Positions 11,759-62,263 of a stretch of 63,836 nt of DNA are shown here, in pieces. The DNA lies in assembly GCA_964016885.1 (NCBI GenBank), contig OZ024746.1:27032001-27095836 (forward strand), read 5' to 3'. The notes below the pieces were generated by a model. That model was not told where the DNA came from and ran no database searches. It saw only the letters and a list, made by a program, of their open reading frames with translations. The translations under genes and the position numbers were made by a program. Origin of the DNA: Eledone cirrhosa. Its lineage: Eukaryota. Positions within the stretch are counted from its first letter, which is position 1; the number at the start of each line of letters is the position of its first letter.

Positions 11759-11973
11759 TAACGAAGGAGTTGTGGTAAGGAACCAGATTGACCACAATGC
11801 ACCAGGGCACTCAATACTTAGGGTAGTAGAGTAGGTAATAGGAAAATGTATGACCCCGACGGCAGAGCTCAAGCCGTTTCGACGGCTATTTCTGGACACA
11901 AAAACTGTTTTTAGTCCAGAAATAGCCGTCGAAACGGCTTGAGCTCTGCCGTCGGGATCATACATTTTCCTAT
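11759..11973. mobile_element. Fold-back mini-element family H1 (3' half of a hammerhead; Penelope pLTR-like) in (TA)n
   Basis: 60-bp inverted arms 11838-11897/11914-11973 plus a roughly 79-bp one-sided tail; homologous to 25813-26892 and 55118-55313. Confidence 0.8.
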
Positions 11974-12066
11974 ATTTATATATAAGATATATATATATAT
12001 ATATATTTATACATTTATTTATATATATATATATATATACATTTATTTATATATATATATATATAT

Positions 12067-12281
12067 ACAGAAACTGACCACACAAAATTCAAGAAGTCTT
12101 TGGACAAATTCCTCCAAGTAATCCCGAACAAACCACCCACACCCGGATATGTCTCCGCAAACAGTAATTCTCTTCTCGAATGGGCCATGGTGCCCAAATC
12201 CTGAATTGAAAGACTTCGCCAGGTGGTGCTATTAAGTTAGACATGGCCTGGGCCAATACTGGCCAAAACATTTCAAAGTTA
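12067..12281 (+). mobile_element. 5'-truncated 3' end of the CR1-group LINE
   Basis: Nearly identical to the reverse complement of about 19231-19445; ends TTTCAAAGTTA into (TA)n. Confidence 0.92.
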
Positions 12282-15200
12282 TATATATATACATTTATAT
12301 ATATATATATATACATTTATATATACATTTATATATATATATACATTTATATATATATATATAACATATATATATATATACATTTATATATATATAGATT
12401 TATATATATATATACATTTATATATATATACATTTATATATATATATACATTTATATATATATATACATTTATATATATATACATTTATATATATATACA
12501 TTTATATATATATATATTTATATATATATATATTTATATATATATATATATTTATATATATATATATATATATATATACATTTATATATATATATTTATA
12601 TATATATATATATATACATTTATATATATATACATTTATATATATATACATTTATATATATATATATATATATATATATATATATACATTTATATATATA
12701 TACATTTATATATATATATATACATTTATATATATATACATTTATATATATATACATTTATATATATATACATTTATATATATATACATTTATATATATA
12801 TACATTTATATATATATATATATATACATTTATATATATATACATTTATATATATATATACATTTATATATATATACACATTTATATATATATACACATT
12901 TATATATATATACATTTATATATATATATATATACATTTATATATATATACATTTATATATATATATACATTTATATATATATATATATATATATATATA
13001 TATATATATATATATATATACATTTATATATATATATACATTTATATATATATATATATATATATATATATATATATATATATACATTTATATATATATA
13101 TATATATATACATTTATATATATATATATATATATACATTATATATATATATATATATATATATATATATATATATATATATACATTTATATATATATAC
13201 ATTTATATATACATTTATATATATATACATTTATATATATATATATACATTTATATATATATACATTTATATATATATATATACATTTATATATATATAC
13301 ATTTATATATATATATATATACATTTATATTTATATACATTTATATATATATATATATATATATACATTTATATATATATACATTTATATATATATATAT
13401 ATATACATTTATATATATATACATTTATATATATATATATATATATACATTTATATATATATATATATATATACATATATATACATATATATATATATAT
13501 ACATTTATATATATATACATATATATATATATATATATATACATTTATATATATATACATTTATATATATATACATATATATATATATATATATATATAC
13601 ATTTATATATATATACATATATATATATATACATATATATATATATACATTTATATATATATCCATTTATATATATATACATTTATATATATATATATTT
13701 ATATATATATATATATATATATATATATATATCTACATTTATATATATATATATATATACATATATATATATATATACATACATATATATATATATATAT
13801 ATATATATATATATATATATATACATTTATATATATATATATATACATATATATATATATATATACATATATATATATATATACATATATATATACATAT
13901 ATATATATATATATATACATTTATATATATACATATATATATATATATATACATTTATATATATACATATATATATATATATATACATTTATATATATAT
14001 ATATATATACATATATATATATACATATATATATATACATATATATATATATATATATATACATATATATATATACATATATATATATACATATATATAT
14101 ATACATATATATATATATACATACACATATATATATATACATATATATATATACATATATATACATATATATATATATATATATATATACATTTATATAT
14201 ATATACATTTATATATATATACATTTATATATATATACATATATATATATATATATATATATATATACATTTATATATATATACATATATATATATATAT
14301 ATATACATTTATATATATATACATATATATATATATACATTTATATATATATACATATATATATATATACATTTATATATATATACATATATATATATAT
14401 ACATTTATATATATATACATTTATATATATATACATTTATATATATATACATTTATATATATATATATATATATATATATATACATTTATATATATATAC
14501 ATTTATATATATATATATATATATACATTTATATATATATATATATATATATATACATATATATATATATATATACATATATATATATATATATATACAT
14601 ATATATATATACATTTATATATATATATATATATACATATATATATATACATTTATATATATATATATATATATATATATACATATATATATATATATAT
14701 ACATTTATATATATACATACATATATATATATATACATTTATATATATATATATATACATATATATATATACATATATATATATATATATATATATATAC
14801 ATATATATATATATATATACATTCATATATATACATATATATATATATACATTTATATATATATATATATATACATATATATATACATTTATATATATAT
14901 ATATATACATATATATATACATTTATATATATATATATATACATATATATATATACATATATATATATATATACATATATATATATACATATATATATAT
15001 ATACATATATATATATACATTATATATATACATATATATATATACATATATATATATACATATATATATATATATATATATACATATATATATACATATA
15101 TATATATATACATATATATATATATATATATATACATATATATATATACATATATATATATATATATACATATATATATATACATATATATATATATATA

Positions 15201-59550: not shown

Positions 59551-59752
59551 AATAATTGTCACAAGTGTAGTGTTTGTACCAGAGTTTTCAAGTCGCTGGC
59601 TGGACTAAAAGGTCACACTCGTTCAGCGCATCGGTAGGGGTTCTCCTACATGGATATAAAGTAGTGGCCGTACTCGAAAACGAGTTGGCAGCCATCATGT
59701 ATGTATGTATGTATGTATGTATGTATGTATGTATGTATGTATGTATGTATGT
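59551..59752 (+). mobile_element. 3' end of an RTE-type LINE: C2H2 zinc finger, short UTR and (ATGT)n tail
   Basis: 59551-59637 translates NNCHKCSVCTRVFKSLAGLKGHTRSAHR* (C-x2-C-x3-F-x5-L-x2-H-x4-H); tandem tail begins about 60 nt later. Confidence 0.65.
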
Positions 59753-61987
59753 TCATCTGCATTCATTATTTTATAAATTTTTAATAACAGAGAGAAAGCC
59801 GGTTTCTAACAGACACAAGATCCTTTCATTGGAATTTAGACATCAACTGGTAAATATCTATGTGGGCCTGCATGCGTGTGCTGGTATGGATATTATTGTA
59901 TGCGTGGATCTGTATGTGTGTATGTGTACACGTGCGTATGTTTTATATCTATATATGCGTATATGCAGTTATTACATGTAGAATTCTTGGAATGTTTTAC
60001 ATACTTTTTAAGTGTTTTAATGGCAGTGAAATAAGTTTTTACCTGTGATTTTTTCATGGATAGACACCAACACAGGCAGCGAATTGACAAAATCATTAAA
60101 ACAGCGGAGAAAATAATTTGGTGTATTCGTCTCCGTATTTTGGGTTCTGGGTTCAAATAGAATACCTTCCAGTACTGGAGTCGACTCTTTCGCCATCTCA
60201 CTGTCTTTCTGTTTTTCTTTTTTCTTTCTGTTCAAGAAATTGACAGTGTTTAGACCGAGAGAGAGGAATGGGCTCCGCCTGATTAAAATGCCTAAGACAA
60301 GTTGTCACATGTTCCGACGGCGCCTCTACAATTCCACCAGGAGTTAAGAGACCATGTATGCATGTATGGACCCATGCATGCATGTATGGCGGACGGACGG
60401 GCGAATTGAAACCGAAATGTAGATTCCTCTTAGCGGAAGCACAGCTACTACATTACTGCGATGGACACCACTTGTGGTATAAACACGATTAGGAATATCG
60501 ATTAAAATATTTCTCATTAAAACCACCTGAGCATTCATTGTAATAACCAAATCAAATAAACGTTGAAATACGAATGATATGTCACACGATGTCGACTATG
60601 TATGTAAATGTATATTTATGTGTCAGTATATGTATATGTGGGTATATGTGGGTATATGTGTATCTATAAATATATGTATATATTTATGTCTGTATGTATA
60701 TGTGTATATATTTATGTCTGAATATGCATGTGTGCATAAATGTATGCGTCTGTATATGTGTGTATATATGTGTATATATGTGTATATATGTATATGTTTA
60801 TGTATGCATATGTATATATATATACATATATATATATATAAATATATATATATATATACAAGCATGTAAATGTGTATATATACATAGGTATGTACGTGTA
60901 TCTCCGTGTATCTACCATGTTTGAGAAGAAACAAGTTTACTCAAGCTGTGGATGTGTCAGCGTACGCGACTCTGAACGCCGTGCATATATATATATATAT
61001 ATATATATATATGTATGTACAAATATATATATATATATATATATATATATTTGTACATACACACATATAGATATAGATATATATATATGGATATGTGTGT
61101 GTGTGTGTGTGTGTGTGTATGCGTGTGAACATATGCAGGTGCGTGTATGTGACTGTGCATATGAATATATATACATAAATATTTGCATATGTGTACATAT
61201 GTGTGTATGCATTTGTTTATGCGTGTGTATAAGATACATTTTCCTAAAGTGGAGACTAAATTGAAATATTCTATTGAGCACCACCGTTTTTAATTATTTG
61301 TAATATTTTCTTTTATAAATATTCATATAATACATTGTTTTACGTTTTTTTAAAAAATATATTTTATTTTCTATTCTTATCTTATTCGTATTTATCTATT
61401 TATCTATTTTTTCTATTTATTTATATATGTATTATATGCGTATATCTTTACTTCATTTACTATGCAATGTTGAATTGAAAATTATTGAACATTCCCCATT
61501 GGTTTAATAAGTATTCTAATCATTTGAAGGGCGGCCACTCATTTTAAAGAATTTTCTTGTATATTTTTGAAAGAGGCGTTAGTCAATATCTGGAAATGTT
61601 TACACATGGAAGTAAACACAGTTTGAAGAATTGAATTGTGTAGCAGGTTTATGAACATTCCAAAAAGAAGAGGGAGACACACATATATATTTGTGTGTGA
61701 GTATGTGTGTATGTATGTATCTACGTATGCATGAATAAATGTATGTATGTATGTGTGCCTGTGTGTGTATGTGTACGAACGTATGTAGGTATGCGTGTGT
61801 ATGTCCGTGTATATACATATATAGATATAAATATATTTACATAGATATCTATATCTGCGCGCGCGTGTGTGTGTGTGTAGCTAGTGAAAGAGAGAGAATG
61901 AAATATTTTAATAAACAAATAAGTATATATATATATATATATATATATATATATATATATATATATATATAGAGAGAGAGAGAGAGA

Positions 61988-62263
61988 TATCACACTGGAA
62001 GGTAATATCCGTAGTGGTAGAGCACTCAGTCCATGGGACGAGTTAGGTAGCAGTGGTAACACAACAGTTAGTTCACCATACCGAGAACAATTGTTTCACC
62101 TTAGCGGATCCTCAACTCGTACCCCGGAGTACGAGCTGAGGATCCGCTAAGGTGAAACAATTGTTCTCGGTATGGTGAACTAACTGTTGTGTTACCACTG
62201 CTACCTAACTCGTCCCATGGACTGAGTGCTCTACCACTACGGATATTACCTTCCAGTGTGATA
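61988..62263. mobile_element. Near-perfect palindromic element, family H4, with a hammerhead in each arm
   Basis: 135-bp arms 61988-62122/62129-62263, 6-nt spacer, one mismatch (62115/62136). Confidence 0.92.
62132..62169 (+). ncRNA. Minimal type I hammerhead (mirror copy at 62082-62119, minus)
   Basis: CGAG-CUGAGGA-U-CC(GCUAA)GG-U-GAAA-CAAUUG-UU-CUCG. Confidence 0.72.

Follow-up and report, generated by a model that had tools for sequence, protein, structure and literature searches.

Most hammerhead elements in a stretch of the Eledone cirrhosa genome are likely ends of Penelope-like retrotransposons, of which the Hydra-type insertions stop beside a twin bulged hairpin

Most of the hammerhead-bearing elements in a 63,836-nucleotide stretch of the Eledone cirrhosa genome (assembly GCA_964016885.1, contig OZ024746.1, positions 27,032,001 to 27,095,836; the window) are probably short ends of coding Penelope-like elements (PLEs) of the Hydra and Neptune types, and the Hydra-type insertions end 2–10 nt 5' of either member of a conserved hairpin pair, which likely sets the reverse transcriptase (RT) start. 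PLEs are the closest retrotransposon relatives of telomerase. A preliminary description of the window had viewed these elements as a diverse ribozyme-element community mobilised by PLE enzymes like those encoded at 39312–43079.

Results

The reality of the hammerhead motifs was confirmed at the level of sequence. All 13 sites listed in the preliminary description have the type I layout, with both core boxes, a stem II and candidate stems I and III; their cores start at 26708, 29197, 34777, 37856, 43351, 49117, 49595, 51686 and 62136 on the plus strand and at 25919, 30138, 35252 and 39009 on the minus strand. In the comparison with dinucleotide-shuffled sequence that the description had proposed as a check, a strict descriptor found four motifs in the window against a mean of 0.05–0.06 in 100 block-wise shuffles, and a relaxed descriptor, tuned after the sites had been seen, gave eight of the 13 sites a score of at least 24 against a shuffle mean of 0.01; the remaining five did not reach its cut-offs. 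Six of the 13 sites have a fully palindromic stem III, a feature that the scan did not demand. Unconstrained folds lie 0.2–6.2 kcal/mol from the active hammerhead fold, which is usual for dimer-type motifs and neutral as evidence. The stem I of sites 30138 and 43351 comprises just two contiguous pairs, and both family-A sites (25919 and 26708) carry a C3–A8 core mismatch. Because this mismatch recurs in most family-A copies (40 of 45 matches in retrieved loci, the other five having U3–A8), many of the motifs may be inactive. No hammerhead family appears among the 150 of 395 Rfam matches listed for the window, and ten loci gave no gathering-level match, so Rfam neither backs the motifs nor names the hairpin module described below.

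The 13 sites fall into 11 families, with A and J represented twice; the description had counted roughly ten. The reading of a non-autonomous community mostly failed. Seven of the families, accounting for nine of the 13 sites, are pseudo-LTR (pLTR) ends of coding PLEs: copies of A, C, I, J, K, G and H continue into open reading frames (ORFs) for RT/GIY-YIG proteins, elsewhere in the genome or in the window itself. The description had stated that its claim of novelty would fall if every family extended into a known autonomous PLE, and this holds for these seven, since all of them run into such ORFs; repeating units without an ORF were seen for D, B and E, and F is D-like. Parents were sought among the best 30 loci per genome search, and the resulting locus counts are lower bounds, since a search with the 5' part of J missed even the copy in the window. 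For family A, an endonuclease frame lies upstream in seven of 30 loci (L025, a microsatellite artefact, being left out), and for family C a parent was found in 12 of 30 (leaving out L191, which has a G-type frame), together with a 3318-bp tandem unit. For K (two of 30 loci) and I (L235 and L142), pieces of the ORF were seen. An RT-like frame was reached in all 30 of the family J loci fetched by pattern, two of which (L453 and L455) hold open frames of 821 codons.

The clades of these parents were assigned by motifs, which place A, C, I, J and K in the Hydra clade and make G and H Neptune-type. A single RT ORF with a C-terminal GIY-YIG domain is seen in J as the 821-codon frames, in C as an RT plus a frameshifted endonuclease, and in part in A; RWK and DKT motifs occur in C, RWT and DKT in J, and RWR and DKM in I. 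A CxCX5C linker, the lack of CCHH and a C-terminal CxxC are common to A, C and J, with the CxxC end alone seen in I and a CxxC-like end in K. Element ends are followed by (TA)4 in 105 of 120 cases for A, 23 of 28 for C, 36 of 42 for I, 71 of 76 for J and 48 of 82 for K, and the hammerhead in the pLTR, the partial tandem, the inverted copy and the one-ended tail are all present in the Hydra-clade families. The (TA)n targeting, the PLE-type fold-back and partial-tandem structure and the PLE machinery of the preliminary description thus stand.

Within the window, repeats were mapped by masked BLAST, as unmasked repeat finding was swamped by TA arrays, and the fold-backs and direct repeats noted earlier proved real. 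Family A is present as three fold-backs. The one at 25816–26890 (plus strand), the 3' end of a coding Hydra PLE, consists of an inverted, tail-less arm at 25816–26196 with the minus-strand core 25919 and a long arm at 26448–26890 with core 26708 and an 80-nt tail that holds hairpin module 1 (26819–26845, plus strand). The other two have no complete ribozyme: at 11761–11973 both arms are cut inside hammerhead loop II and the tail is on the left arm, and the copy at 55120–55310 is likewise cut inside the hammerhead. Family C is a 5'-truncated Hydra PLE at 29888–30663 on the minus strand, with an endonuclease remnant at 30532–30663, a U3–A8 hammerhead at 30138–30108 and a tail of ~160 nt containing a long-loop module 1 at ~29966–30040. 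The 3' end of family I, a coding Hydra PLE, lies at 49090–49331 on the plus strand (hammerhead 49117–49198, module 1 ~49258–49285). Family J, the pLTR of a 3.9-kb coding Hydra PLE, forms a fold-back at 49377–49694 (plus strand) in which an inverted arm with an 84-nt tail (module 1 at ~49432–49459, minus strand) is joined to a sense arm that begins ~70 nt before core 49595; a second plus-strand copy at 51556–51785 (core 51686) has a different junction. The family K fold-back at 61988–62263 (plus strand), the 3' end of a coding Hydra-type PLE, has its axis just 5' of the hammerhead at 62136–62165 and a module 1 at ~62208–62230. A further family, L, is a perfect fold-back at 29458–29827 with a half copy at 51810–51994; its hammerhead is a degenerate U3–A8 form with an altered second box.

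The two PLE frames that had been proposed as the driver are a divergent Neptune-type pair, 63% identical (40620–43079 on the plus strand and 39312–40535 on the minus strand), and both copies are 5'-truncated. Family G (38811–40535, minus strand) retains the C-terminal half of the RT and the GIY-YIG domain in frame 39312–40535, and has its own 3' hammerhead at 39009–38975; a fold-back at 40407–40607 sits at its truncated 5' end, followed by an unrelated RTE-like piece at ~40608–40750. Family H (40620–43487, plus strand) lacks the N-terminus and is open to 43079, the first ~46 codons of its frame deriving from the RTE-like piece, and its 3' hammerhead at 43351–43384 has a weak stem I. Both have a CX2-5CxxC linker and a CCHH-type GIY-YIG domain, its histidines read by eye. 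They carry DKS in place of the DKG of Neptune-type PLEs, and their clade was assigned by motif. The hairpin module is absent from the G tail, the one Neptune-type tail examined, which counts further against this pair as the driver.

The ends of the Hydra insertions lie 2–10 nt 5' of one or other of the two hairpins. The (TA)n junction is no more than 16 nt 5' of a module at all 57 ends of J and all 15 of C, and at 29 of 30 for E, 17 of 19 for B and 17 of 19 for K; the modal distances are 3–6 nt. The short-end distance of B is 13–16 nt or ~4 nt depending on which of two candidate stems is taken, and for family I, whose reference has no module-1 anchor, eight of 27 ends were not placed relative to the modules. 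In all families examined the 3' end takes two positions at (TA)n, separated by a tail as long as the distance between the hairpins. Within a J fold-back the arms carry the same variants: at two polymorphic sites they match in 29 of 30 and 28 of 30 loci. The solo J arms encountered by chance begin between –84 and –52 in all 17 listed cases, whereas ORF-linked J arms start anywhere and none of 17 does so at –84 to –68. One chance-met J copy (L316) extends upstream. Families A and C have no sharp 5' mode, and the queries for both favoured long copies.

The hairpin itself is a covarying, bulged element of which two copies lie between the ribozyme and the start codon of Hydra elements in this genome and in marine metagenomes, giving the pLTR order hammerhead, hairpin 1, hairpin 2, start codon. 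One 7-mer is common to six of the seven tails of this genome, and any such 7-mer reached at most five of seven in 2000 shuffles. Among 78 Hydra loci from marine metagenomes there are 47 non-duplicate hammerheads, and 37 of these have the motif after them, usually twice. With a 2-nt bulge the upper stem pairs at 129 of 171 positions, against 56 of 171, 46 of 171 and 41 of 166 in other registers, and includes all four Watson–Crick types; these counts are not independent, because near-duplicates occur among the metagenome loci. The basal pair is G–C in 63 of 77 metagenome modules and A–U in six of 12 modules of this genome. An earlier rendering of the tail motif as a bare palindrome was replaced by this bulged hairpin. 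The continuation into module 2 was not found for family A or K.

A prediction follows from this arrangement, namely that the J long end should continue into the start of a module 2. The combined pattern had 262 matches in the genome and its reversed control none. The module thereby located the coding parent loci of a family that had looked ORF-less, and with these matches and the RT-like frames of the loci fetched, the interpretation of J as a 255-nt non-autonomous unit was rejected.

Family B (29143–29394, plus strand; hammerhead 29197–29261, module 1 ~29333–29363) derives from an ORF-less head-to-tail unit of ~1.36 kb with both Hydra modules, seen in L118, with an identical junction at L124 and L135. 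In L123 an ORF piece precedes B, but it belongs to another family in a chimera and was rejected as a B parent. Family E (35005–35364, minus strand; hammerhead 35252–35203, tail of ~140 nt, module 1 ~35080–35142) likewise has an ORF-less head-to-tail unit, of 2.09 kb, at one locus (L236). Family D (34511–34970, plus strand) is a retrozyme-like, ORF-less unit comprising a monomer of ~437 nt and a ~32-nt repeat of its start, with a canonical-type hammerhead at 34777–34810 and an 8-bp stem I. Its period is 436–441 bp in four of five loci, those giving a value, and neither an attached PLE frame nor a Hydra module was found. Among the top 30 D loci, 25 exceed one unit, and no full dimer was seen; most D copies are dispersed 1.1–1.8-mers with a PLE footprint of two 3' ends, inversions and TA targets. 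The D head-to-tail joint was present in the contigs of one of two runs, of unrecorded kind, which has no bearing on expression. Since the ORF-less status of B, D and E rests on the best 30 loci per search, any of them may have a coding parent. Family F (37805–37950, plus strand; hammerhead 37856–37892), whose copies are 77–85% identical among themselves, appears to be an old D-like relic.

Discussion

How PLEs choose internal priming sites, and how their tails and inverted copies arise, are questions described as open in PMC8557442 and PMC11167929. Ends set by a hairpin would account for the PLE tail, the fold-backs and the fixed-length mini-copies alike. In the mechanism that we propose, the RT/GIY-YIG protein, probably dimeric, would dock on the two hairpins of a single RNA and nick each strand of (TA)n, whereupon each 3'-OH would anneal by a few TA bases just 5' of a hairpin, giving a long, tailed arm and a short arm whose cDNAs would be joined by microhomology into a fold-back. 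Where the hairpins at the transcript 5' end are used, copying would run off the RNA start after 170–260 nt, and the product would be a mini-copy of fixed length that has no ORF and whose hammerhead is uncut, as in families J, K and I; such copies, lacking hairpin 2, would be dead ends. The role of the hammerheads, acting mostly as dimers, would be to trim multimeric transcripts or to make them circular. B and E, in which the two hairpins enclose a non-coding body, probably depend on Hydra proteins for their mobility. D probably represents a retrozyme RNA, circular or multimeric, that some PLE inserts.

A broader hypothesis, which we consider somewhat more likely than not, is that Hydra-clade PLEs use an undescribed, cross-phylum twin bulged-hairpin RNA signal that would be the functional counterpart of the protein-binding and template-boundary elements of telomerase RNA. 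A protein dimer would dock on both hairpins and prime both target strands a fixed distance upstream, and this single rule would yield the tail, the fold-backs, "strong-stop" mini-copies from the mRNA 5' end and the several hundred thousand hammerheads estimated for the genome; any RNA with the two hairpins, such as B or E, would insert into (TA)n.

Alternative explanations must be weighed against this model. The one closest to the preliminary description, in which most families are independent non-autonomous mini-retroelements with short or circular RNAs driven by the elements at 39312–43079, draws on the ORF-less head-to-tail units of D, B and E, on the short, numerous and sharply bounded copies of J and K, and on a 310-bp 11-mer hammerhead array in L314. 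We regard it as very improbable, since the coding parents refute it for A, C, G, H, I, J and K, the short J copies are without hairpin 2 and have arms that covary per copy, as expected if made afresh, and the ORFs of the window are Neptune-type and truncated, with a G tail that has no module. It is also quite unlikely that the elements are PLE ends in which the twin motif serves another step, as an endonuclease DNA site, a promoter or translation signal or a packaging signal, with starts set only by nearby TA microhomology. The near-palindromic 3' half of the module would suit a DNA-binding dimer, module 2 lies shortly before the start codon, the junctions fall on short TA stretches, and the tail of Drosophila Penelope is reported to be necessary for endonuclease recognition (cited in PMC11167929). 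However, a covarying stem whose bulge is always on one side argues for a single-strand structure, and the ends stay 3–6 nt from both modules despite spacings of 57 to 160 nt, with internal TA stretches elsewhere rarely used. Module 2 is also lost from new insertions, a loss that would not be expected of a DNA target site located where the element inserts. The module may nonetheless act as DNA or in translation instead of in priming.

A rather doubtful reading, to which we give slightly more credence, is that the fixed-length fold-backs are 3'-primed cDNAs stalled at a strong structure, with arm identity arising by later gene conversion in the palindrome. Many junctions do lie in or at hammerhead stems (loop II in A, the base of stem II in the left arm of J, stem I in K), and the existence of read-through templates is shown by ORF-linked pLTRs that extend as much as 900 nt beyond the presumed start. 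However, if stalling at –70 were general, ORF-linked arms would be expected to stop there too, which is the case in none of 17, and both arms reach the same 5' point in L086, L174, L199 and L334. We retain hairpin-set priming as the preferred explanation.

The twin hairpin module looks new, whereas the element classes themselves are known. For Hydra-clade PLEs, a clade defined in section 11 of Craig et al. (2021, PMC8557442), insertion at (TA)n and the presence of hammerheads are already published, as is a member from Octopus. The elements described here share with them the C-terminal GIY-YIG without CCHH, the RWK and DKT motifs, the CxCX5C linker, a canonical hammerhead, (TA)n insertion, partial tandems, inverted 5'-truncated copies and the one-ended tail. 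They differ in unit length (3.3–3.9 kb against generally under 3 kb for the Hydra clade) and in tails of 57–160 nt against 30–40 for PLEs in general (PMC8557442), and the hammerhead of Hydra-1_Obim from Octopus bimaculoides matches no family of the window. The twin hairpin is visible in two published consensus sequences, and a term search of the main text of PMC8557442 found no mention of it. For the Poseidon element PAc of Anolis, Frangieh et al. (2024, PMC11167929) report a tail that is delimited by a pair of internal RT start sites and uncut RNA as the substrate, hammerhead cleavage being dispensable for insertion in vitro. Cutting and extension of both strands, AT-rich targets and a predicted dimer are common to PAc and the model proposed here; PAc belongs to a different clade, its initiation lies in an AC-rich stem-loop inside the ORF, and the consulted sections of that paper describe no duplicated conserved module.

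As in the minimal PLE hammerheads of Cervera and de la Pena (2014, PMC4209133), an extra base after A9, the U3–A8 variant, palindromic stem III, many families per genome, opposite-strand pairs 100–700 bp apart and mostly solo copies, there ascribed to truncated PLEs, are seen; fixed-length fold-backs have no account in that work. D and the families of L310, L314 and L336, non-coding tandem units of 310–440 nt with canonical-type hammerheads, resemble the non-LTR retrozymes (Cervera and de la Pena 2020, PMC7229834; Li et al. 2026, 10.64898/2026.07.22.740005), which are proposed as non-autonomous PLE derivatives. D has the short non-coding unit (150–450 bp) and canonical type I hammerhead by which retrozymes are recognised, and its PLE footprint is a kind of evidence not used in the consulted sections of those papers.

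Since the RNA element is short, duplicated and covarying and keeps a fixed distance from both ends, the priming question becomes testable with few mutants. If the module suffices in cis, it would serve as a small tag directing RNA-templated insertion to TA microsatellites. It is also of use in annotation: it has already led to the coding parent of a seemingly non-autonomous family, and with its help hammerhead repeats, some perhaps now classed as SINEs or MITEs, could be sorted into coding and non-coding ones.

The relaxed scan found 56 motifs in 40 further 10-kb stretches of the genome. As this density equals that of the window, the window is not a special community. At ~1 hammerhead per 7–8 kb the genome-wide estimate is roughly 2–8 x 10^5, by which hammerhead-bearing fold-backs would be a large source of inverted repeats in this genome. 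The estimate exceeds any animal count in the cited literature, as far as the consulted sections go; the counts in PMC4209133 are in the thousands per genome, with ~9,000 in Xenopus tropicalis.

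Hammerhead motifs in the window and across the genome

The proposal in the preliminary description that the window holds about 13 complete type I hammerheads was borne out, as the type I layout is present at 13 of 13 sites, which fall into 11 repeat families (A–K, with A and J represented twice). A strict scan returned 4 matches compared with 0.05–0.06 in shuffled sequence, and a relaxed scan, with settings tuned after the sites had been seen, placed 8 of the 13 sites at or above a score threshold of 24 compared with 0.01 in shuffles; an extra weak relaxed match at 6699 is probably due to chance. 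Stem III is perfectly palindromic, a property that is not a criterion of the scan, in 6 of 13 window sites and 16 of 24 hand-listed motifs outside the window (rough expectation, 2), and such a palindrome has been described as a dimer signature (PMC4209133). Some of the motifs are defective. Stem I has only two contiguous pairs in families C and H. The family A core carries a C3-A8 mismatch in 40 of 45 matches, with a U3-A8 minority (window 26708 and 25919; locus L308), and on this sequence evidence the family apparently spread while carrying a probably crippled ribozyme. In the additional degenerate family L (window 29458–29827 and 51810–51994; loci L310 and L328) the second core box is altered in every copy seen, and a related family (L309, L340) has a normal one.

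How does this window, at 31% GC and rich in TA microsatellites, compare with the rest of the 3.0-Gb assembly? Forty 10-kb stretches, taken at round coordinates picked by the analyst rather than drawn at random, contained 56 motifs scoring at least 24 compared with 0.5 in 10 shuffles; at least one motif is present in 22 of the 40, and 11 motifs derive from a single array. Weighted by chromosome class, the genome is estimated to hold ~435,000 hammerheads (bootstrap 210,000–764,000), or 334,000 (bootstrap 209,000–475,000) with the array treated as one, and the hammerhead content of the window is typical of the genome. Published values are ~9,000 in Xenopus (PMC4209133), >6,000 in a coral, ~5,000 in a mussel and up to 120,000 in the axolotl (PMC7229834), and 235 Rfam matches in the giant squid (PMC6962438).

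Coding parents of the hammerhead families

The motifs had been interpreted as a community of ribozyme elements, many of them short and ORF-less, mobilized by Penelope-like element (PLE) enzymes. This is partly supported: the ribozyme motifs are confirmed, but 7 of 11 families (9 of 13 sites) are the ends of coding elements, because coding parents were found for A, C, K, I, J, G and H. For each search of the assembly, the best 30 loci were examined for parents (17 in one K search). For family A (3913 candidates), an endonuclease frame lies ~1 kb upstream in 7 of the best 30 loci, and locus L231 contains an RT thumb and endonuclease. For family C (2265 candidates), 12 of the best 30 loci have a coding frame, L228 is a pLTR-ORF-pLTR (pseudo-LTR) unit of 3318 bp, and the sole named homologue of the protein is from Argonauta; this homologue and the SINE and LINE content of the genome fit its probable origin, an octopus. 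The endonuclease frame ends ~190 nt upstream of K (339 and 131 candidates) in 2 of the best 30 loci; in family I (3135 candidates), the endonuclease end is followed by a 1.3-kb UTR in L235, and in L142 the ORF begins after the tail, the stretch between two alternative 3′ ends. Family J (524 candidates in a first search) was regarded as ORF-less until a search with its long 3′ end joined to the start of module 2, the second of two hairpins discussed below, led into an RT-like frame in 30 of 30 fetched loci (only briefly in one); L453 and L455 have 821-codon open frames within 3.9-kb units. G and H correspond to the window frames 39312–40535 (−) and 40620–43079 (+), which are 63% identical, divergent and both truncated, with a Neptune-type linker and a 3′ hammerhead each; a high-copy RTE-like fragment (40608–40750) lies between these elements. 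Hydra motifs, as defined in section 11 of PMC8557442, are carried by A, C and J and present as pieces in I and K, and Hydra PLEs are described there as inserting in (TA)n, carrying canonical hammerheads and including an Octopus family.

A GC-rich palindromic box precedes the hammerhead in PLE ends, whether coding or not (B and K loci L126, L251, L255 and L258; window ~39095–39110 and 43215–43230). We take this box to be NRF-1-like, and it may belong to the pLTR promoter.

A twin hairpin at the insertion ends

Two 3′ ends, short and long, are present in all eight families examined, and the tail between them measures 57–161 nt in seven Hydra-type families and ~32 nt in D. One 7-mer is common to 6 of the 7 Hydra-type tails, with a variant in C, and is absent from the tails of G and D; in 2000 shuffles, with one degenerate position allowed, no 7-mer attained 6 of 7 tails. 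In 78 related marine metagenome loci the motif lies 3′ of 37 of 47 non-duplicate hammerheads, usually as two copies (modules 1 and 2) before the start codon. The motif makes up the 3′ strand of a hairpin whose basal stem is 4 bp long and whose upper stem varies; a two-base bulge (U-pyrimidine) lies on the 3′ side, and three conserved bases follow the hairpin. In counts that near-duplicate loci inflate, a matching 5′ strand is found in 70 of 82 motif windows compared with 22% of control windows, the 2-nt-bulge register gives pairing at 129 of 171 upper-stem positions compared with 41–56 in other registers, and G-C is the first pair in 63 of 77 modules from metagenomes (octopus modules, n=12: A-U 6, G-C 5).

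In families B, C, E and I, copies running beyond the long end reach module 2 within ~10 nt. For J, this continuation was predicted before it was sought, and the search then gave 262 matches (reversed control, 0); none was met for A or K. The published consensus Hydra-1_Ajap carries both modules and Hydra-2_Amil carries module 1 (PMC8557442 supplement), so the hairpin reaches an echinoderm and a coral. Module 2 of the metagenome element L364 and module 1 of family J have almost identical loops in distant hosts.

Junctions with (TA)n are located no more than 16 nt 5′ of a module at 57/57 ends in J, 15/15 in C, 29/30 in E, 17/19 in B and 17/19 in K. Of the 65 junctions in family A, 48 fall at the long end, 16 at module 1 and one elsewhere; in family I, 19 of 27 are at module 2 and 8 are unassigned, as the reference had no module-1 anchor. 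The inverted arms of J fold-backs are concordant at two sites in 29/30 and 28/30 loci, and their junctions shift by a few bases about a microhomology. At the opposite end, solo J arms met by chance start 84 to 52 nt before the hammerhead core in 17 of 17 listed (a further copy, L316, extends upstream), and ORF-linked J arms start from −42 to beyond −900, with zero at −84 to −68. Sharp 5′ modes, partly query-biased, are also seen in I (22/38 at −36 to −25) and K (46/74 at −12 to −1).

How might one signal generate both tails and fold-backs? For the element PAc, both strands are cut and then extended, the tail is bounded by two internal start sites, a dimer has been predicted, and the RNA used is uncut (PMC11167929). 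We hypothesize that each start would be set by one hairpin per protein subunit, and that priming could also occur on those hairpins that lie at the 5′ end of the mRNA, with run-off at the transcription start, which is placed within the upstream pLTR (PMC6765202). Such priming and run-off is the simplest reading of the sharp 5′ ends of J, I and K copies, and most "mini-elements" would then be by-products rather than replicating units.

The window elements belong to known kinds: the literature already describes pLTR hammerheads, (TA)n targeting by Hydra elements, fold-backs, tails, retrozymes and PLEs that are non-autonomous, and annotated PLEs exist for Octopus vulgaris (PMC13282606; PMC8967140). 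In the openly accessible literature searched, which included few supplements, neither the twin hairpin nor 5′-primed run-off copies nor a census of octopus hammerheads is described, and none of these appears in the main text of PMC8557442 or among the Rfam matches listed. What merits testing is this candidate cis-signal, together with the explanation it offers for how tails and fold-backs form.

ORF-less units and other repeats

Family D (2538 candidates) has a period of 436–441 bp and two 3′ ends ~30 nt apart. Among its best 30 loci, for which the query favoured full-length copies, 25 exceed one unit, 14 have inverted pieces and 20 have (TA)4 within ~28 nt; no full-length copy was met in the 400-kb sample formed by the forty stretches. 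Family B (2948 candidates) forms a ~1.36-kb head-to-tail unit in L118, with an identical junction in L124 and L135; family E (2812 candidates) has, in L236 only, a unit of 2088 bp that shows no similarity to PLE proteins; and family F (385 candidates) is old and D-like. Octamer-type boxes, seen by eye and not counted, lie ~85–100 nt before the core, upstream of canonical-type hammerheads, in D (window 34597–34706), F and three sampled families (L310, L314, L336). The octamer box is linked to snRNA-type promoters, hinting by analogy at such a promoter here. Newt satellite 2 has a promoter of the snRNA type (cited in PMC2220036). A PLE origin of such ORF-less units has been argued from co-occurrence and pLTR similarity (10.64898/2026.07.22.740005).

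Locus L314 (281–3381) contains eleven 310-bp units head-to-tail, each with a canonical-type hammerhead, and by its sequence is a textbook non-LTR retrozyme array. At window 16160–17400, a 707-bp partial tandem without an ORF has two 3′ ends and the first hammerhead box only, resembling the Naiad "half-core" (PMC8557442); it has relatives at at least 6 other loci and no match in the portion of that paper's supplement covered. In L123 (oriented 780–1354), another Hydra family contributes the 5′ region, the ORF start and hairpin modules of its own, fused to a B 3′ part; this chimera suggests template switching between families.

A LINE with apurinic endonuclease and RT domains (Pfam Exo_endo_phos and RVT_1) occurs at 19233–22894 (−), 12068–12279 and 43954–44370; its three 3′ ends are 99.5–100% identical, each followed by 0.4–3.9 kb of interrupted TA repeat. 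This LINE may represent a second family associated with TA, one that is very young and whose tails are expanding. For a small fold-back centred on (TA)n (51350–51497), the loci examined contained zero copies. A 91-bp minisatellite spans six units at 35673–36224, and a ~200-bp SINE-like repeat (630–1045, 10208–10435, 47063–47269, 56132–56560 and 57791–58207) has 98 matches in the 400-kb sample.
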